Both the position numbers and the translations under genes were made by a program. Of a stretch of 64,000 nt of DNA, positions 3,597 through 11,242 are shown one piece after another. Source of the stretch: Oscillospiraceae bacterium (GTDB lineage Bacteria > Bacillota > Clostridia > Oscillospirales > CAG-272); contig SVTD01000003.1 of the NCBI GenBank assembly GCA_015063955.1, positions 3,952 to 67,951 on the forward strand, in the 5' to 3' direction. The notes beneath the pieces were generated by a model that searched no databases, was not told the origin of the DNA, and saw only the letters and a list, made by a program, of their open reading frames with translations. The first letter of the stretch is position 1, and each line of letters opens with the position of its first letter.

Positions 3597-4328
3597 ATGA
3601 ACGTAATTCTTTACGGTGCAGGCGGTAGAATGGGCAAGGAGGTCAACGCTCTCATCGAGGCGAGCGATAACTGTACTCTCTGTGCCGCTGTTGACAAGAT
3701 AAGCGAGGATGTTGCTCTTCACGACCTTGCAGACTATCAGGGCGATGCCGACGTAATCATCGACTTTTCCCACCACTCCCTGACAAAGGAAGTTATTGCA
3801 TACGCTATAAGCCGTTCTCTTCCCCTCGTTATGTGCACAACAGGTCACACCGAGGAGGAAAAGGCGCTGATATTTGAGGCGGCAAAGTCTATTCCCGTAT
3901 TCTACTCCGCCAATATGTCTCTCGGCATTGCAACGCTCTGCGATTTTGCCCGCCGTGCCGCAGCTCTTTTCCCCGATGCGGACATTGAGATCGTAGAGGC
4001 TCATCACAACCGCAAGCTGGATGCCCCCAGCGGCACCGCTCTTATGATCGCCGATACAATTAAAGAGGTGCGCCCCGAGGCTCAGTACGTTTTCGGCCGC
4101 CACGGTATGGCAAAGCGTGCCCCCGAGGAGATCGGCATCCACTCTCTCAGATGCGGAAACGAGCCCGGTATGCACGAGGTCATCATCTCCACAGACTATC
4201 AGTGCCTCTCCCTCAAGCATAACGCAGAGTCAAGAGCCGTGTTTGCAGAGGGCGCACTTTCTGCGGCTAAGTTCATAAACCGCCGCATTGCAGGACTTTA
4301 CAATATGTACAGCCTTATCGATGGCTGA
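3597..4328 (+). CDS. dapB: 4-hydroxy-tetrahydrodipicolinate reductase
   Basis: GAGGRMG Rossmann motif and EAHHNRKLDAPSGTA signature. Confidence 0.96.
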   Translation: MNVILYGAGGRMGKEVNALIEASDNCTLCAAVDKISEDVALHDLADYQGDADVIIDFSHHSLTKEVIAYAISRSLPLVMCTTGHTEEEKALIFEAAKSIPVFYSANMSLGIATLCDFARRAAALFPDADIEIVEAHHNRKLDAPSGTALMIADTIKEVRPEAQYVFGRHGMAKRAPEEIGIHSLRCGNEPGMHEVIISTDYQCLSLKHNAESRAVFAEGALSAAKFINRRIAGLYNMYSLIDG

Positions 4329-4338
4329 CGAGGAAATT

Positions 4339-5634
4339 ATGCTACACACTAATCTTTCAATAAACGAAAAAGGTCACCTTTGCCTTGCAGGGCAGGACGT
4401 TTGCGACCTTGCAGAAAAGCACGGCACTCCCCTTTTCCTTATGGATGAGGAGCGTATCCGCTCCAATGCGAGGACCTATATCGACGCTATGGCGGAGTTT
4501 ATGCCCGAGGGCAGCCGCCCCCTTCTTGCAAGCAAGTCCTGCTGCTTCAAAAAGCTTTACTCCATCGTTGCAGAGGAGGGTATGGGAACAGACCTTGTTT
4601 CCCCCGGCGAGCTTTACACGGCGGCGGCGGCAGGGTTCCCCCTGGAAAACGCCTTTTTCCACGGAAACAATAAGACGGACGCCGATATTGCTTACGCTAT
4701 CGACTCCGGCGTCGGCTACTTCGTGGTGGACAACCGCGAGGAGCTTGATTCCGTAAACGAAACGGCAGGAAAAAAGGGTATCACACAAAATATCCTCCTC
4801 CGTCTCTCCCCCGGAATCGACCCTCATACCCAGAAAAAGATCTCCACGGGCAAGGTAGACTCAAAGTTCGGTACTGCTATAGAGACGGGACAGGCGCTTG
4901 AGATGTGCCGCTACGCACTCACCCTTAAAAACGTTTCCCTCAAGGGCTTCCACTGCCATATCGGCTCTCAGATATTCGAGTACGAGTCCTTTGCCGATGC
5001 GGCAGAGATCATGCTCCGCTTTATCCGCACACTTTTCGACGACTGCGGCTTCACCACCGAAATGCTCAACCTCGGCGGCGGCTTCGGCGTGCGCTACGTT
5101 GAGTCTGACCCCATTATCGACTACCGCGAAAATATCAAGGGTCTTGCAGGCGAGATCAAGAGAATTTGCCGTGAGCTTTCAATAAAGGAGCCCGCAATTC
5201 TTATGGAGCCCGGACGAAGCATCGTTGCTGATTCCGGTCTGACAGTCTATTCCGTAGGAAGCGTCAAGACCATAACGGGCTACAAGAGCTACGTATCCGT
5301 TGACGGCGGTATGCCCGACAACCCCCGCTACGCTCTTTACGAGTCCGATTACACCTGCCTTATCGCAAACAAGGCAGACCGCGAGCCTGATTTCTCGGCA
5401 ACCGTTGCGGGACGCTGCTGCGAAAGCGGCGACCTTATTCAGGAGGACGTGATGCTTACACGTCCCGAGCGCGGCGATTATCTTGCAGTCCTCGTAACAG
5501 GCGCATATAATTTCTCCATGGCCTCAAACTATAACCGCATCCCCCGTCCTCCCGTGGTCATGCTTCGGGACGGCGAGAGCTACGTTGCGGTAAAGCGCGA
5601 GACCTATGAGGATCTTTTAAGAAACGATATGTAA
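4339..5634 (+). CDS. lysA: Diaminopimelate decarboxylase
   Basis: SKFG, HCHIGSQ, EPGRS, CCESGD, GAYNFSMASNYN motifs; start chosen after RBS GAGGA. Confidence 0.95.
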   Translation: MLHTNLSINEKGHLCLAGQDVCDLAEKHGTPLFLMDEERIRSNARTYIDAMAEFMPEGSRPLLASKSCCFKKLYSIVAEEGMGTDLVSPGELYTAAAAGFPLENAFFHGNNKTDADIAYAIDSGVGYFVVDNREELDSVNETAGKKGITQNILLRLSPGIDPHTQKKISTGKVDSKFGTAIETGQALEMCRYALTLKNVSLKGFHCHIGSQIFEYESFADAAEIMLRFIRTLFDDCGFTTEMLNLGGGFGVRYVESDPIIDYRENIKGLAGEIKRICRELSIKEPAILMEPGRSIVADSGLTVYSVGSVKTITGYKSYVSVDGGMPDNPRYALYESDYTCLIANKADREPDFSATVAGRCCESGDLIQEDVMLTRPERGDYLAVLVTGAYNFSMASNYNRIPRPPVVMLRDGESYVAVKRETYEDLLRNDM

Positions 5635-5672
5635 GCCGTTAGTCTTACGAATCTAAAGAATTGGTGTTAATT

Positions 5673-6527
5673 ATGAACTTTTGTCCGAATTGTAATACTC
5701 CTGCAGGCGAAAACCACACGTTCTGCGCATCCTGCGGAGCAAGCCTGATAAAAGAGACACAACAGCCGAAGGCTCCCCATTGCCCAAATTGCGGAGCTGA
5801 AGTTGGCGATAATCATTCCTTCTGTCCTTTTTGCGGTACTGAAGTGGCGAAGCCGCAACCCCGTCTGTGTCCAAACTGCGGCGCCGCGGCTGAGGGTAAT
5901 CACACCTTCTGCCCCTTCTGCGGCACGGGGCTCAACGCAGCCCCCAAAAGACCTGCCGGAGGAGAATCCATAACCTGTCCTAACTGTGACTCAATAGTAA
6001 GACCGTATAACGGTCTTTGCCCCTTCTGCGGAACAGAGCTTCTTTCTCCCGCATATAAAACGAATCCCACGCCCCGTCCCTCAGCTGCTGAAAAAAACAG
6101 ACATAAGCTCCATTGTCCTTCCTGCAAATCGAATAATCTTGACAATGCCACAGAATCAAACGTAAGCGCCGGAATGGGAATCACCAAAGGCAATTATACC
6201 GGAATGGTTTTTAGCAACGAGCATAAGCATTACTGGATCTGCCGAGACTGCGGAGAAAAATTCAGAAATATCCAGAGCCTTGAGGAAGAGATCAAAAGCG
6301 AGAGCTTTGTTCCCAATTGTTGCAAGGTTTGCTTCTTTTTTATGCTGTTTGCCGTTCTGTTTTTCGGATTTACGGCAATGGCTATGCAGATCGAGATCCT
6401 TCGGTACTGTACCGTGTTTGCACTGGTAGGCTGCGCCATCACACTCCTTTTGTGGGCGGTTTTTGCAAAACACGTGAATAAGCTCAAGGACGAGCTTGAT
6501 TACCTTAAAACAGAATGCTTTAATTAA
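5673..6527 (+). CDS. Multi zinc-ribbon membrane protein
   Basis: Four CPNC-x10-CxxCG repeats, a fifth CxxC/CxxC pair and two C-terminal hydrophobic helices. Confidence 0.75.
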   Translation: MNFCPNCNTPAGENHTFCASCGASLIKETQQPKAPHCPNCGAEVGDNHSFCPFCGTEVAKPQPRLCPNCGAAAEGNHTFCPFCGTGLNAAPKRPAGGESITCPNCDSIVRPYNGLCPFCGTELLSPAYKTNPTPRPSAAEKNRHKLHCPSCKSNNLDNATESNVSAGMGITKGNYTGMVFSNEHKHYWICRDCGEKFRNIQSLEEEIKSESFVPNCCKVCFFFMLFAVLFFGFTAMAMQIEILRYCTVFALVGCAITLLLWAVFAKHVNKLKDELDYLKTECFN

Positions 6528-6678
6528 AGAATCAAGGCTGTTGTATTCCCACAACAGCCTTTACTCTGTCAAAAGACACCTGTCTTCGCTAAAATCACCC
6601 GATATGTTCGGGAACTATATCCAATCATCAGCAAATCATAAATGATTTTTCCTTATTTCGTATTAAAAAAGCAGGGAG

Positions 6679-7392
6679 ATGATGAACATTAAGAAAATAA
6701 AGGCCTATCTCGGCTTTGAGGTGCTTATGATCGTTTCGGTGGTCGGACTGAATATAGCGTTCTTTTTCGATCATGCCGCAGAGGCGATCATTTTTAAATC
6801 GGCTGCCGGTCTGTTTTTCGTTGCGGCAGGCTTGTGCGGATACCTGCAAAATAAAGATAACCGTGCCTTTTTCCGCCCGGTATTTATCGCAATTCTTTGC
6901 TGTATGGCAGGGGACGTATTCCTTGCCCTTGATAGCGACGGACTTCTTTTTCTCCTTGGCGTAGTAAGCTTTGGTGCTGCCCACGTACTGTTTTCCGTTG
7001 CCTTTTGCAAAAAGTCTCCCGTAAAAAAAACAGATATTGTCGCCGCGGCCGTGCTGCTGCTTGGATTCACACTAAGCCTGTTTTTCGTTGATCTTGAATT
7101 CAGGGGGCTGCTCCCGGTCGTTATCCTGTATGCGGCGATCATTGCTTTTATGGCAATAAAGGCGCTGTCTCTGTGGCCATACCGCAAAGAAGAGCCTGCC
7201 TGCATAAAGCTGCTGACCGTCGGGGGAGTTTTGTTTCTCATCTCGGATCTTGTGCTTCTGTTCTGGCTGTTCGGAACTGATCCCCAAAAGCCCGTCCAGT
7301 CTGTAAACTGGGTGCTCTACTATTCATCACAGCTCTGCACCACCGCCGCACTTAACGAATACGTAAGCGTTACATCAAATCAAAAAGCGTGA
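6679..7392 (+). CDS. YhhN / lysoplasmalogenase-family membrane protein
   Basis: Multi-TM protein with GDVFL, F..AH, LFLISD and terminal YYSSQ motifs. Confidence 0.8.
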   Translation: MMNIKKIKAYLGFEVLMIVSVVGLNIAFFFDHAAEAIIFKSAAGLFFVAAGLCGYLQNKDNRAFFRPVFIAILCCMAGDVFLALDSDGLLFLLGVVSFGAAHVLFSVAFCKKSPVKKTDIVAAAVLLLGFTLSLFFVDLEFRGLLPVVILYAAIIAFMAIKALSLWPYRKEEPACIKLLTVGGVLFLISDLVLLFWLFGTDPQKPVQSVNWVLYYSSQLCTTAALNEYVSVTSNQKA

Positions 7393-7417: not shown

Positions 7418-7540
7418 TTACCCCGCCGCGTCCATCATATTCTCGATAAATATCCCATACCCGCGGCAGGGATCGGATACGAGGACGCGGATGACGGCGC
7501 CGATAAGCTTTCCGTCCTGCACTACGGGAGAGCCTGACAC
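7418..7540 (-). pseudogene. Displaced spoIVB 3' end, copy 1 (SGSPVVQDGKLIGAVIRVLVSDPCRGYGIFIENMMDAAG*)
   Basis: Near-identical to 10226-10345; homology stops at the GMSGSP Ser codon. Confidence 0.9.
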
Positions 7541-7559
7541 GAGTGTGTCAATATAGGAC
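7514..7559. mobile_element. Putative att recombination site 1 (46-bp imperfect dyad)
   Basis: GTCCTGCACTA...GA(7536-7537)...CAATATAGGAC; the non-coding arm is shared with 8305-8350. Confidence 0.65.
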
Positions 7560-7566
7560 CAACAAA

Positions 7567-8124
7567 TCAGGAAGCAGAATCGTCATCATTTTCCTTGTTT
7601 TCACGCAGATATTTTTGCCAGGCTTCAGTATATCGACATTCCCATTTTACAGTGGTGATTGCGCTATAATTGATTTCCCAGCCATCATCCCAAACACCGT
7701 TTGCATCAAAGGACTTGAAATGAAGCTTGTTTTTAAGGGCTTTTTCCACAACGCCAATTAAGAATTTATCCTCTATCTCATCTTCAATAATTACGAAGCA
7801 ACCCATTTCCTTGAGGGAAGAAAAAATGCTTTGCCAACTGGAAATATCCACCTGCGGCATTTTGATTTTCTCGTGAGTGCCATTGAATTTGTTGATGATA
7901 TTACATAGATCGTCTTTAATCTCAACTTTCTTCAATTGCGATATCTTTCGTATGCAATAACCGTCCAAAATAAAATCGTCTTCTTCCTGTCCTAACAGAA
8001 ATTTATCGTTTACGGCATTCGGGTAGTAATAGTGGTAGTTCTTATCGTAACTAAAGTAACAACGACAAATTTCCGTTTCCGAGATCCCTCTGCTTATAAT
8101 ATCTATTTTTTCTTGCTTCTTCAT
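7567..8124 (-). CDS. Hypothetical protein, cargo of cassette A
   Basis: 185-aa ORF with RBS AAGGCGGTGA; visibly AT-richer than flanking housekeeping genes; family not recognised. Confidence 0.75.
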   Translation of the reverse strand: MKKQEKIDIISRGISETEICRCYFSYDKNYHYYYPNAVNDKFLLGQEEDDFILDGYCIRKISQLKKVEIKDDLCNIINKFNGTHEKIKMPQVDISSWQSIFSSLKEMGCFVIIEDEIEDKFLIGVVEKALKNKLHFKSFDANGVWDDGWEINYSAITTVKWECRYTEAWQKYLRENKENDDDSAS

Positions 8125-8174
8125 ATTTTCACCGCCTTTTCTTTAATTATAGCACAAGGTGGTGAAATAGCAAT

Positions 8175-8203
8175 AAAAAACAGGCGGGAATTTACTCCCG
8201 CCT
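8175..8203 (-). terminator. Terminator after spoIVB 3' copy 2
   Basis: AGGCGGGA/TCCCGCCT hairpin with a minus-strand T tract. Confidence 0.7.
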
Positions 8204-8208
8204 TATGA

Positions 8209-8331
8209 TCATGATGCCGCATCCATCATATTTTCTACAAAAATTCCGTAGCCCTTAGTAGGATCGGAGACGAGGACGTGGGTGACGGCGCCGACGAGCT
8301 TTCCGTCCTGCACTACGGGAGAGCCTGACAC
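8209..8331 (-). pseudogene. Displaced spoIVB 3' end, copy 2 (SGSPVVQDGKLVGAVTHVLVSDPTKGYGIFVENMMDAAS*)
   Basis: Same length and frame as the native spoIVB tail, with synonymous and conservative differences. Confidence 0.9.
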
Positions 8332-8350
8332 GGACGTGTCAATATAGGAC
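8305..8350. mobile_element. Putative att recombination site 2 (46-bp imperfect dyad)
   Basis: GTCCTGCACTA...GA(8327-8328)...CAATATAGGAC, same architecture as 7514-7559. Confidence 0.65.
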
Positions 8351-8369
8351 CAACACACGTCTGTTAATT

Positions 8370-8807
8370 TTAGGTGTTTACGGGTTCTCCGTATTCACGC
8401 TTCATCGCATCTACGGAAACGATCCACTGCTTACCGAATTTGCAAACATCAACACCGTTTACAAGCTTTCCGTATGAGATCGCCTTTCTCAGCGTGCTCT
8501 CGTTAAGATTCCATAAGAACGTGGCATCGCTGAAGGCCATAAGTCCGTCAAAGGGTGTTTCTATCGTTTTTCCGTTGGCCCACAGTTCATCGCAGGAAAT
8601 GTCTATATCATCATTCCAGACGATTCCGTATCCGCCCTGATCTACCGTAACGTTATAAAACAAGGAACGGTCCTCCTTAAGGGGAGAAAACATTTTGTAT
8701 TTTTCAAAAAGCTGACCAACTTCATACACCTTGGTAACACCCTCTGAAAACTGAATGGTGAGCCTGTACTCAGGCAGCGCAGTTACACTTTTAACCTTAT
8801 GAAACAT
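8370..8807 (-). CDS. DUF2442-type antitoxin with C-terminal HTH
   Basis: KVKSV..LPEYRLTIQFSEG...GYGIVWNDDIDIS..ELW pattern followed by a short HTH; downstream partner of a DUF4160 gene. Confidence 0.8.
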   Translation of the reverse strand: MFHKVKSVTALPEYRLTIQFSEGVTKVYEVGQLFEKYKMFSPLKEDRSLFYNVTVDQGGYGIVWNDDIDISCDELWANGKTIETPFDGLMAFSDATFLWNLNESTLRKAISYGKLVNGVDVCKFGKQWIVSVDAMKREYGEPVNT

Positions 8808-8817
8808 AAATTCCTCC

Positions 8818-9072
8818 TTATTCCAAAGGACTAAGAGCTATAAACTCCTGTGTTTCCCAGATCTTCATAAGCTCATCTCTGTGAAGATCATTCCACTCAA
8901 GAACCATTTCAAGCGCCTTTCGCGGCAATTCACCCTCAAGCACCTTTCCGTCCTGAATACATATTGCCGCCATATGTTCACCGTATATTGCGTGAAAATG
9001 GGGCGGATTGTGTTCCGATTGCTGAAAATACATTCTGATTATTATTCCGTAAAACCGCGCAAGCACAGGCAT
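8818..9072 (-). CDS. DUF4160-type toxin
   Basis: MPVLARFYGIIIRMY...EHNPPHFHAIY signature. Confidence 0.85.
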   Translation of the reverse strand: MPVLARFYGIIIRMYFQQSEHNPPHFHAIYGEHMAAICIQDGKVLEGELPRKALEMVLEWNDLHRDELMKIWETQEFIALSPLE

Positions 9073-9104
9073 TGTGACACCGCTCCTTTCTATTCTTCAA
9101 CCTA

Positions 9105-9133
9105 ATTATATCACGGTACCGTGATGCTGTCAA
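9105..9133 (-). promoter_or_regulatory. sigma-A promoter of the TA operon with a palindromic operator in its spacer
   Basis: Minus strand TTGACA-17 bp-TATAAT; perfect 16-bp palindrome ATCACGGTACCGTGAT at 9110-9125. Confidence 0.8.
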
Positions 9134-9249
9134 TAGCTTATTATTACACACGATTCAAGAGTCCACACACAAAATAAGACGTTGCCATTACCGTCGGGCA
9201 GGGTTATAATATTACCGTAAGCTTACAAAATACGTTTTTGGAGATATTT

Positions 9250-10173
9250 ATGAATACAACTGTTTTTTCCGAGAATTTAAAGAAATTCCGAATTGCCAAG
9301 AATATGACGCAGGAACAGGTAGCAGAAATACTTTGCGTTAATGCTCAGACCGTTTCAAGGTGGGAATGCTCTAGCACTATGCCTGACGTTATGACACTTC
9401 CCGTGCTTGCGAAGCTTTACGGCGTGACTGTGGACGATCTCTACAAAAAGCATTCCGTTGCTTATGATAACTATGCACAGCGACTGTCCTCCGTTTATGA
9501 AAAAAGCCGCGATCCCGAGGATTTTTTGCGCTGTGTGCTTGAATACAAAAAGCTGATAAAAAACGGAGAGCTCTCTATGTCAGACAAATGGAACTATGCC
9601 ACGGTTCACCATTTTATGCTGCGCCACTGTAAAAACGTTGCGTTGGAATGGTATGACAAGGCAATAGCAGACGGTCCCAATGAGGACCCACACATCTACA
9701 GTCGGGCGCGTGCGCTGAGAGCAGACCTTATGAATGAGCTCGGAAAGATCGACACGGTGATCGCAGAACAGACAGAAAAATGCAATCAATTTCCCGACAA
9801 CGGAATGGAATGGGAATACCTCATTGAATCATATCTTATCGCGGGGAAATACGAAGATGCTTTTAAAATTTACGAAGAGGCTGTAAAGCGTTTTCCCGAA
9901 AGCTGGAGGCTTTATTTCCACGGCGGCGAGATCTACGAGCATATGCAGAAATACGATGAGGCTTTTTACTGTTGGGATAAGGCAGGAGAACTTGGCACAG
10001 ATTTTTATGACGAATACTACGCAAAGGCATCCTGCTACGACGATATGGGAGAGTATGAGAAAGCCTCTAAGATATATCAGGAAATTGCAGAAAAGCTTTT
10101 GGCAGACGGCTATGATGAGGAAGCTGAAATGGCAAAAGAAGAATCCTTACGCATCAAGCTGAAAATAAAGTAA
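9250..10173 (+). CDS. XRE-family HTH regulator with TPR repeats
   Basis: NLKKFR..KNMTQEQVAEIL.V..QTVSRWE HTH and C-terminal TPR-like helices; upstream TTGCCA-17-TATAAT. Confidence 0.85.
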   Translation: MNTTVFSENLKKFRIAKNMTQEQVAEILCVNAQTVSRWECSSTMPDVMTLPVLAKLYGVTVDDLYKKHSVAYDNYAQRLSSVYEKSRDPEDFLRCVLEYKKLIKNGELSMSDKWNYATVHHFMLRHCKNVALEWYDKAIADGPNEDPHIYSRARALRADLMNELGKIDTVIAEQTEKCNQFPDNGMEWEYLIESYLIAGKYEDAFKIYEEAVKRFPESWRLYFHGGEIYEHMQKYDEAFYCWDKAGELGTDFYDEYYAKASCYDDMGEYEKASKIYQEIAEKLLADGYDEEAEMAKEESLRIKLKIK

Positions 10174-10190
10174 TCCTGAAAGTATTTGGC

Positions 10191-10224
10191 AAAAGAATGG
10201 GGCAGTTGAAAAACCGCCCCATTC
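10191..10224. terminator. Terminator between convergent spoIVB and XRE-TPR genes
   Basis: GAATGGGGC...GCCCCATTC hairpin. Confidence 0.65.
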
Positions 10225-10225
10225 G

Positions 10226-11242
10226 TTATTCAGCCGCGTCCATCATATTATCGATAAATATCCCATACCCGCGGCAGGGATCGGAGACGAGGACGTGAGT
10301 GACGGCGCCGACGAGCTTTCCGTCCTGCACTACGGGAGAGCCTGACATTCCGCGGACTATTCCTCCGGTTTTTTCAATAAGGGAGGTATCGCTGACCGTT
10401 ATGAGAAAATTCTTATTCTTTTCCCCCGAGTCCTCAAGGCAGGTGATCTCTACGCTGTATTCACAGACGCCCTCACCGTCCACCGTTGAAAGGATGGTTG
10501 CACCGCCGTTCTTTACCTGCCCCTTTGGCATAAGCTCTATTTCCCGTGCTTCAAACCCTTCCGGAAGAACAGTGATATATCCGAATACTCCTCTCTGAGT
10601 ATTCTTATTCACAACTCCAAGCTTTTCGGAATGAAAATCTCCTTTAAGCTCTCCCGGCTCTCCTTCCTTTCCCTTTATAACACCGGAAACTGTTACCTCA
10701 GAAACAACTCCCTTTGAAAAATCGCACAGCTCTCCCGTATCGCTTTTCAGAATACCGTGACCGAGTCCGCCGAATCTGCCCGTGTCCTTTTCTATATAGG
10801 TAACGGTGCCAAGCCCGGCCGTGGAATCCTCAAGCCATATGCCAAGGCGCCATTCTCCCGTTTCCTTTGACAGTACCGGCTCAACCTCTACGGACAGCTC
10901 CTCTTTTCCCCTCAGTATACCAAATCTTACAGACGCACCGTTACCGCCTTTTACGGCTACAGTCACGTCGTGGGCGCAGGTTACCTCTTTGCCGTCTATC
11001 ATTTTTATAATATCGTTTTCCATAAGCCCCGCATCCTTTGCAGGTGACAGGATACCGTTTTCGGTTTCTATTTCGTCAAAGCCGCCGATCTTCAGCTCCC
11101 CCGTCTGAAAGCTTACTCCGAAGGGCATACCGCCGAGGATCACCGTTTTCTTCTTTCCCTTAGCCGAAGCCGCAGGACATAAAAGAATGAGAAGTGCCAA
11201 GGATACGGCAACTGCGCTCCTCACTTTATTTATATATTTCAT
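10226..11242 (-). CDS. spoIVB: SpoIVB serine peptidase (S55) with PDZ domain
   Basis: Signal peptide, GGMPFGV, PDZ region, GLGHG, TGGIVRGMSGSPVVQDGKLVGAVTHV; RBS GGAGG before ATG 11242. Confidence 0.95.
   Translation of the reverse strand: MKYINKVRSAVAVSLALLILLCPAASAKGKKKTVILGGMPFGVSFQTGELKIGGFDEIETENGILSPAKDAGLMENDIIKMIDGKEVTCAHDVTVAVKGGNGASVRFGILRGKEELSVEVEPVLSKETGEWRLGIWLEDSTAGLGTVTYIEKDTGRFGGLGHGILKSDTGELCDFSKGVVSEVTVSGVIKGKEGEPGELKGDFHSEKLGVVNKNTQRGVFGYITVLPEGFEAREIELMPKGQVKNGGATILSTVDGEGVCEYSVEITCLEDSGEKNKNFLITVSDTSLIEKTGGIVRGMSGSPVVQDGKLVGAVTHVLVSDPCRGYGIFIDNMMDAAE

Follow-up and report, generated by a model that had tools for sequence, protein, structure and literature searches.

In our best reading, the nearest known relatives of the locus described here are the islands of the staphylococcal cassette chromosome (SCC) and pseudo-SCC elements, the latter being units without ccr genes, and not integrons. 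The locus is the 3' end of the sporulation protease gene spoIVB in a metagenome-assembled genome (MAG) of an Oscillospiraceae bacterium (GCA_015063955.1, contig SVTD01000003.1), of which we analysed a stretch of 64,000 nucleotides (positions 3,952 to 67,951 of the contig; hereafter the window). PMC13739063 describes SCC as att-flanked units inserted at the 3' end of rlmH (orfX) by element-borne large serine recombinases (LSRs), CcrAB or CcrC, and a second source describes a three-element composite SCC island that includes a PsiSCC (10.1101/336396). The spoIVB elements are similar in that LSRs are borne by the elements, a single site is used at the 3' end of a conserved gene that stays intact, and units form tandem composite arrays that include recombinase-less members (the window holds two units). 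They differ in their target, spoIVB, where they exchange a 120-bp coding stretch that takes in the catalytic serine, and not a short att core at the end of the gene; in their much smaller size (0.8-9 kb among those found here); in their cargo (regulators, sugar and other metabolic genes, surface proteins); in their hosts, which are spore-forming gut Clostridia; and in their LSRs, which are single or triple.

Other described systems share some of these features. In Streptococcus thermophilus, cis-mobilizable elements (CIMEs) accrete in tandem with ICESt1 and ICESt3 at the 3' end of fda; they are bounded by att sites, lack recombination genes, stand beside complete elements or descend from them, and can be mobilised by the recombinase of a related element. 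The window units are likewise flanked by a short sequence, the arm, that also bounds LSR-bearing elements, and they carry no recombination or transfer genes; however, CIMEs use tyrosine integrases and derive from conjugative elements, whereas the enzymes linked to spoIVB are LSRs. Integrons, and superintegrons in particular, resemble the spoIVB arrays in their many small, mostly co-oriented cassettes with diverse content that includes toxin-antitoxin genes. The spoIVB arrays, however, have no IntI tyrosine integrase, attI/Pc platform or attC hairpins, and their cassettes bring predicted promoters and regulators. The skin element in sigK (recombinase SpoIVCA) and SPbeta in spsM (SprA) are LSR elements that split sporulation genes and are excised in the mother cell. 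They too combine LSRs with a sporulation gene as target, but spoIVB is kept whole by a replacement tail and needs no developmental excision. In the literature on spoIVB we found no description of the gene as an attachment site of a recombinase or integrase, and the element family is widespread in gut Clostridia and apparently undescribed.

Repeated spoIVB tails and their junction

We consider it likely that the region is a two-unit composite island at an LSR attachment site inside spoIVB, an LSR-driven 'cassette chromosome'. A repeat search of the window placed the 3' end of spoIVB in three direct copies of 122 nt (7418-7539, 8209-8330 and 10226-10347). We call the last 120 bp of the gene in these copies tails T1, T2 and T3 (Table 1); T1 and T2 are 791 nt apart, T2 and T3 2017 nt, and T3 lies inside the live gene. 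Over 124 nt, T1 and T2 agree at 99/124 positions, T1 and T3 at 112/124 and T2 and T3 at 102/124, and a core of 34 nt is identical in all three.

The live open reading frame (ORF) is intact, and the Peptidase_S55 match of its product (Pfam Peptidase_S55/SpoIVB, E 5e-72, together with PDZ) spans profile positions 2-210 of 210. The motif around the serine is GMSGSP in the window, and presumably GMSGAP in its native B. subtilis form. The product also matches the SpoIVB chain of PDB 9lnf_A (E 1e-52), with GMSGSP aligned to GMAGAP of that chain. An S378A variant is described in PMC12502668.

On the minus strand, the sequence leading into T1 and into T2 is TGTTGGTCCTATATTGACAC-nnn-CG-TG-TCAGGC..., and the live gene reads ...GTCCGCGGAA-TG at the matching place (written out, ...CGCGGAA-TG-TCAGGC...). 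The homology to spoIVB thus begins at one base in both displaced tails, at the TG of the codon before the serine of G-M-S-G-S-P. A first interpretation made from the letters of the window (the sequence-only reading) had claimed three direct tail copies, a common stopping base behind a shared arm in the two extra copies, and GMSGSP as the catalytic serine motif; the repeat search, the junction reading and the alignment with 9lnf_A bear out all three. In the 2.07-Mb genome, a 20-nt arm pattern (<=4 mismatches) has two sites, both at the extra tails, and the 34-nt core (<=6 mismatches) occurs only at T1, T2 and T3. This restriction rules out a chance arrangement. We also considered two other origins for the arm and rejected them: it shows no similarity to the native upstream codons, as spoIVB-derived coding sequence should, and as a promoter it contains TTGACA but no -10 box downstream.

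The tails themselves carry traces of exchange and decay. T3 is a mosaic, its first third being closest to T2 (40/41) and the remaining thirds closest to T1 (37/41 each). Compared with the tails of relatives, those of the window are 66-88% identical, with no pointer to an ancestral tail; only a change from T-H, present in 9/9 other compared tails, to I-R marks T1 as decaying. Both cassettes are richer in AT than the genome (GC 0.374 and 0.436 vs 0.482). The sequence-only reading gave each tail its own terminator, which holds for T1 and T2, where terminators were called; T3 shows only a weaker hairpin.

The same junction occurs in other genomes. Among 401 same-family genomes, five besides the window's own contain the arm (<=2 mismatches), compared with one match for a reversed-pattern control. 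Four of these five matches (G193, G039, G017 and G008) run into a spoIVB tail at the identical base, and their tails differ from those of the window at synonymous sites. The fifth, in G166 (2 mismatches), has no spoIVB tail behind it and was rejected as a chance match. Arrays of two or three tails are present in G017, G008 and G039, some of the tails having related but different arms.

We then scanned one genome per species (Clostridia MAGs) with the exact arm pattern, which was present in 107 stretches from records labelled Acutalibacteraceae, Oscillospiraceae, Faecousia, Eubacteriales and some Lachnospiraceae-type MAGs. Nearly all of the 81 arms read in 80 of these 107 loci continue in frame as V-S-G-S-P, and a few tails are decayed. 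A tblastn search over the 107 loci gave 39 full spoIVB genes and 126 displaced-tail matches. A strict arm stands at 95 of the 126 displaced tails; most of the other 31 have, at equal distance, arm variants of the form TGTTG..CC.TA..TTGACACAC.C followed by GTG, and the remainder are offset or decayed. Two to four displaced tails were counted in 23/107 loci (within 8-kb blocks). The exact arm had no match in viral contigs, so nothing in that collection points to a phage.

Conservation of the arm extends over 25 nt, and the sequence upstream of it is unrelated between elements. An LSR attP site measures about 50 bp, with half-sites of about 25 nt; a conserved arm of this length with unrelated sequence beyond it therefore fits one half of such a site. 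In four loci, a degenerate arm also lies 150-156 nt upstream of the exact arm (TGTTGGTCCTATTATCACAC in 3/4), separated from it by an AT-rich spacer and with no tail after the first arm (Table 1). This double arm represents either two sites conserved as a pair or what is left of a unit without a tail that travels with several different elements.

Within the window's genus, spoIVB was found in 22/31 genomes, and extra tails only in the window's own genome (G000), G411 and G428. Our reading of junctions in the genus covered seven relatives: live spoIVB reads ...GGAATG-TCN-GGN... in G411, G421, G415, G409 and G413, and the displaced tails of G411 and G428 are preceded by an arm variant. Cassette content thus varies between close relatives. 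The sequence-only reading had suggested looking for the junction in other genomes and tabulating the arrays; the window and >100 genomes have their junction at one and the same base, and array length and content vary as just described. This recurrence upholds its claim that the units are real cassettes (spoIVB tail, terminator, cargo and arm) stacked by site-specific insertion at one base.

Table 1. Features of the spoIVB array in the window, with the paired arms of four other loci. Positions are those of the window unless a locus is named.
Feature	Position	Strand	Description
Live spoIVB	10226..11242	-	338 aa from ATG at 11242; ORF open back to 11338
Tail T3	10226..10345	-	Catalytic-Ser codon to stop, in use; part of cassette 2, attL side
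TG of Met codon before catalytic Ser	10346..10347	-	First bp common to attB-type and arm-type junctions; candidate crossover dinucleotide
Equivalent TG at displaced tails	8329-8330 and 7538-7539	-	From junction reading
Arm of cassette 2	8331..8355	-	TGTTGGTCCTATATTGACAC GTC CG; presumed P half-site of LSR attachment site
Tail T2	8209..8328	-	Displaced copy, 80% identical to T1; part of cassette 1; then terminator 8203-8182
Arm of cassette 1	7540..7564	-	TGTTGGTCCTATATTGACAC ACT CG
Tail T1	7418..7537	-	Most distal displaced copy, presumably original host tail; then bidirectional terminator 7416-7382
Cassette 2	8329-10345		T3, XRE-TPR, DhiT-like pair, arm
Cassette 1	7538-8328		T2, 185-aa gene, arm
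XRE (HTH_3) + TPR regulator, cassette 2	9250..10173	+	307 aa, convergent with spoIVB; Pfam; predicted promoter 9182-9210
DUF4160 protein, cassette 2	8818..9072	-	84 aa, DhiT-like type II toxin relative; Pfam DUF4160 E 1e-22
DUF2442 + HTH_59 protein, cassette 2	8370..8807	-	145 aa, presumed partner of DUF4160 protein; Pfam
Arm-proximal backbone module	8336..9134	-	Promoter, DUF4160, DUF2442/HTH_59, arm; common to triple-LSR element
Cassette 1 cargo protein	7567..8124	-	185 aa, no Pfam family; predicted promoter 8173-8146
Degenerate/exact arm pair, L136	10142, 10298	reverse	
Degenerate/exact arm pair, L138	13613, 13765		
Degenerate/exact arm pair, L137	2362, 2516	reverse	
Degenerate/exact arm pair, L042	2729, 2879	reverse	

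Relatives that carry large serine recombinases

Complete members of the family encode LSRs. The G402/L123 element is 8.85 kb long and consists of spoIVB, a 549-aa LSR, Fic, a LytTR response regulator, a GHKL kinase, a 1088-aa protein, the arm and the old tail. Its LSR gene starts 134 nt behind the spoIVB stop, and the protein has the domains Resolvase, Recombinase and Zn_ribbon_recom. The G433/L138 element (4.3 kb) is built in the same order from spoIVB, an LSR, a 796-aa protein, the arm and a tail. LSR genes homologous to that of G402 (46-56% identity) also lie directly behind arm and tail in L111, L098 and L037, the last in truncated form, and thus show the tail-first layout of G402 and G433. 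One block of an LSR-bearing spoIVB element, L021 1-1577, is 99.9% identical over 1577 nt to L111 (reverse strand) 5366-6942 from a different species, reflecting either a very recent transfer or cross-binning.

A second type carries its LSRs towards the arm. In G429/L136, DUF3854 and actin-like segregation genes and an XRE gene are accompanied by three tandem LSR genes (552, 568 and 536 aa). Past the third LSR gene lie DUF4160, DUF2442/HTH_59, a degenerate arm, about 130 nt, an exact arm and a tail. The combination of Resolvase, Recombinase and zinc ribbon was confirmed in all three proteins, as in that of G402. The window shares this arm-proximal module: positions 9134-8336 are 75% identical over 800 nt to L136 (reverse strand) 9377-10161, a stretch that begins 66 nt after the third LSR gene. 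The DUF4160 protein of the window is 81% identical (amino acids) to the product of the gene after the third LSR in L060/L136, and the DUF2442/HTH_59 protein 82% identical to its homologue there. Judged by this similarity, cassette 2 looks like a reduced form of a triple-LSR element that has kept the arm-proximal backbone but not the LSRs.

Units without an LSR are also shared between species. A one-gene cassette of this kind is 96-98% identical over 1.3-1.6 kb in L037, L042 and L115, which belong to three species, whereas identity falls to 73-75% in the flanks of L037 and L042, namely the body of spoIVB and the tail that follows. This difference indicates that such LSR-less units do move between species. 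The right edge of the block shared by L037 and L042 is the arm end. In other locus pairs, cargo and arm are common at 86-96% identity. Taken together, these comparisons indicate that units do spread between species and that their tails are reshuffled afterwards.

From these observations we infer the following mechanism. The attP site would be made up of the arm (25 nt), a TG in the centre and the first part of the spoIVB tail that the element brings, and attB would be the conserved ...GGNATNGTNC/ANGGNA-TG-TCNGG... of spoIVB. An LSR acting on the arm would recombine the two at or just after the TG before the serine codon, so that the element tail is joined to the host gene and the old tail ends up further downstream, beyond the arm. 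Since the element tail mimics the host tail, the left junction would stay attB-like and the right junction would be attP-like; with attB regenerated at the left junction, further units could stack, the newest beside spoIVB. In the window, cassette 1 would then have inserted earlier and cassette 2 last, T1 being the original tail, and live spoIVB would be a chimera of the host body and the last 40 codons from the newest cassette. An LSR supplied in trans could excise one or several units. The window units would be mobile again only with such an LSR, and the MAG has no intact one.

Several observations weigh against this interpretation. The high identity between L037 and L042 begins about 21 nt inside the tail, which a simple crossover at the TG does not predict, and in some other pairs the shared block omits the first tail, while in others it takes in the second. 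The window has no LSR by Pfam, and the only serine recombinase of its MAG (84% complete, 92 contigs) is a 313-aa protein on contig C54, without a zinc ribbon and 29% identical to the G402 LSR. The two LSR types, single on the tail side and triple on the arm side, are bounded by the same arm and yet only about 28-29% identical. Among 50 arm-bearing genomes (MAGs), an intact close homologue of the G402 LSR was found in 0/50; there were two truncated homologues (57-61% identity) and five LSRs at 30-32%. The sequence-only reading proposed looking for a recombinase that co-occurs with the arm; those found with it are the LSRs of complete members. Lastly, no circle or excision product was found among the short Logan unitigs of runs X1, X4, X24 and X8.

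These unitigs were our read evidence: 24 runs cover part of the stretch, and the four examined gave pieces of 60-955 nt. No unitig bridges a whole cassette, and unitigs break at the tails. The joints among them lead from 10277 back to 8261 (X8) and from 7462 to 8272/8275 with 18-21 other letters (X8, X24). Their sides are 20-52 nt at 90% likeness and may stem from the tails of other organisms, so they speak for neither circles, excision nor misassembly. Runs X24 and X8 cover parts of cassette 2 but not the spoIVB body or the downstream flank; such lack of cover is no evidence.

Two side observations concern the proteins and loci just mentioned. The 313-aa protein (G000:C54:8385-9326; L003 1027-1968, minus strand) combines a Resolvase with a Recombinase domain and is probably a truncated LSR; the genes beside it belong to no Pfam family, and contig C54 has no arm or tail. 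In the live tails of L037 (reverse strand, 2443-2490) and L042 (reverse strand, 1390-1437), there are seven differences in the first 21 nt, and the serine codon differs (AGC vs TCG).

Rival readings of the arrays

To describe what the arrays contain, we delimited 41 complete cassettes in 80 of the 107 loci, each running from a spoIVB gene or tail through the next arm. Their length ranges from 873 to 6293 bp, with a median of 2503, and their 102 ORFs (>=60 aa) fall into 72 clusters, 75 ORFs pointing with spoIVB and 27 opposed to it. Pfam families on the 90 cargo ORFs of >=90 aa include AraC-type (11) and XRE-type (9, HTH_3) regulators, so that regulators make up 20/90; the other families are LRR_5, EamA, pyruvate-formate-lyase-like, Fic, collagen-like and many single families. 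The 25 Pfam families listed for the cargo include no recombinase family, and any other family has at most one member. A hidden Markov model (HMM) search with a home-built serine-recombinase model found no recombinase in 40/41 complete cassettes; the remaining one, in L055, contains two serine-recombinase fragments. A second HMM, for tyrosine recombinases and based on 30 genes from five genomes, had no match in ORFs of >=120 aa in the 107 loci, while the control recovered both tyrosine recombinases of the window MAG, which lie far from the spoIVB locus.

The alternative that survives best is pure decay, in which every recombinase-less cassette is an immobile remnant of deletion in situ and the arrays are graveyards of complete elements. 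Decay certainly occurs: L055 retains LSR fragments, the LSR genes of L037/G453 and G459 are truncated and contain stops, a degenerate arm in L042 is joined to 125 nt of another cassette's end, and T1 has changed at conserved residues. The LSR fragments and the backbone module that cassette 2 retains from behind the three LSRs of G429 indicate that complete elements have given rise to at least some of the cassettes by reduction. To this extent they count against the sequence-only reading, which named deletion remnants of large elements as a refuting outcome. Most cassettes, however, show no recombinase trace (40/41). Their 102 ORFs are spread over 72 clusters, and an exact arm is kept in each cassette. 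Further, the cassette of L037, L042 and L115, 96-98% identical and with its right edge exactly at the arm end, implies either the transfer of an LSR-less unit or three identical deletions. We therefore regard decay as the sole explanation as possible but rather unlikely.

The sequence-only reading itself favoured an integron-like system. In its strict form, a dedicated, host-encoded recombinase would capture cassettes at spoIVB, and their expression would depend on the platform. The small, mostly co-oriented cassettes (75 vs 27 ORFs), their very diverse cargo, with a toxin-antitoxin-like pair among it, and the lack of a recombinase in most units do recall integrons. But there are 0 tyrosine recombinases in the 107 loci, no fixed recombinase gene stands beside spoIVB, and the recombinases found sit inside elements. 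Platform-dependent expression fits poorly with cargo genes in the window that have predicted consensus-like promoters, and with the AraC or XRE regulators that many cassettes bring. The arm, moreover, is conserved in sequence and has only a 6-bp palindrome, unlike a folded attC. On these grounds the integron-like claim is not supported in its strict sense, and we hold such a platform to be improbable. That palindrome, TGACAC-nnnn-GTGTCA, is the sole one found and spans the junction; it had suggested a tyrosine recombinase, Xer or pdif-type mechanism. We rejected such a mechanism because the palindrome centre lies outside the sequence common with the empty site, and because no tyrosine recombinase was found in the 107 loci.

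Campbell-type integration by RecA, occurring anywhere in the 120-bp tail homology with no site-specific enzyme, would account for the mosaic tails, such as the thirds of T3 that match T2 and T1, and for the left edge of the shared blocks, which varies between pairs. It does not account for the finding that, in >100 species, homology always stops at one base and a single family of 25-nt arms takes its place. LSR genes are linked to the arm, and perfect identity among the tails is limited to 34 nt, so we think it highly improbable that RecA acted alone. Site-specific insertion is probably accompanied by homologous exchange between tails, as a further source of mosaicism. An assembly artefact, in which the three tails are collapsed or chimeric metagenome repeats, might be suspected in a MAG of 92 contigs whose public unitigs break at the tails, but it is hardly credible when the copies, whose flanks are unique, differ at 12-25/124 positions, X1 unitigs show 0 differences from the unique parts, and >100 independent assemblies, several with contigs >100 kb, show the same architecture.

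Cargo of the window and meaning of the family

Neither cassette encodes a recombinase, as the sequence-only reading had it: Pfam finds no recombinase domain in the window genes between 6679 and 11809. The pair in cassette 2 that it called a toxin-antitoxin pair consists of a gene for a DUF4160 protein and an adjacent DUF2442/HTH_59 gene; the match of the DUF4160 protein to NCBIfam toxin_DhiT (86 bits) is under the curated cut-off of 100. PADLOC gave no defence-system match for 3/4 cargo proteins, and only HTH-level matches for the XRE-TPR protein. All three cargo transcription units are preceded by predicted consensus-like promoters, with 12/12, 11/12 and 10/12 matches. The one before the DhiT-like operon (9133-9105) has the consensus and, with that of the XRE-TPR gene, forms a divergent predicted pair at 9105-9210 (12/12, TTGACA-17-TATAAT with extended TG, and 11/12). 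XRE-HTH proteins with TPR or a long helical C-terminus recur as spoIVB cargo in several genera (L015 2487-4833, L011 594-2444 and the window, 9250-10173).

The 185-aa protein of cassette 1 (gene GC 0.371 vs 0.482 for the genome) belongs to a family that is widespread and uncharacterised: no informative name is attached to any of its 191 related protein clusters, the named ones being 'hypothetical protein'. The family comprises at least 191 clusters of about 177 aa with many invariant residues (C20, R21, C22 and several W/Y), and many of its members sit on contigs of 0.7-1.5 kb. A match to the NleE family (19 bits vs a cut-off of 75) is not meaningful. Nor is cassette 1 a recurrent spoIVB cassette, since 31/33 metagenome loci of relatives of its gene lie away from spoIVB, and only L170 and L173 adjoin it; the cassette bears no sign for or against an origin by deletion from a complete element.

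Upstream, spoIVB is neighboured by PRC-barrel and wecB-like genes. In 8 stretches of 6 genus relatives, neither YhhN, the zinc-ribbon protein nor lysA was found beside spoIVB, so that the original downstream neighbour offers no means of dating the insertions. Downstream of the array, at 5661-6527 (plus strand), an ORF of 288 aa contains at least five CPxCG...FC(x)xCG zinc-ribbon-like repeats and a hydrophobic C-terminal part.

A more far-reaching proposal is that spoIVB serves as a docking site for LSR-driven gene capture, an integron-like function reached by another route, with unlimited stacking, excision of single units or blocks, and exchange between species by the LSRs of visiting complete elements. 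As the single-type LSR gene starts so close behind the spoIVB stop and has the same orientation as spoIVB, its transcription may come from readthrough of the forespore-specific promoter of spoIVB, which could time the gain and loss of cassettes to the spore-forming cell. We offer this only tentatively, and think it doubtful in its full form.

If the two-unit composite island is correctly read, arm and tail together would be a simple marker for accessory genes in MAGs and would explain contig breaks at the locus, and the elements would supply natural LSR/att pairs with a short, well-defined attP arm. It would also be a second, independent case of the staphylococcal 'cassette chromosome' principle. 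Spore-forming gut Clostridia would share one hot spot at which serine recombinases swap small modules between species, namely regulators, toxin-antitoxin genes, surface proteins and genes of carbohydrate and other metabolism. The essential sporulation protease would come through undamaged, its catalytic serine then being encoded by mobile DNA.

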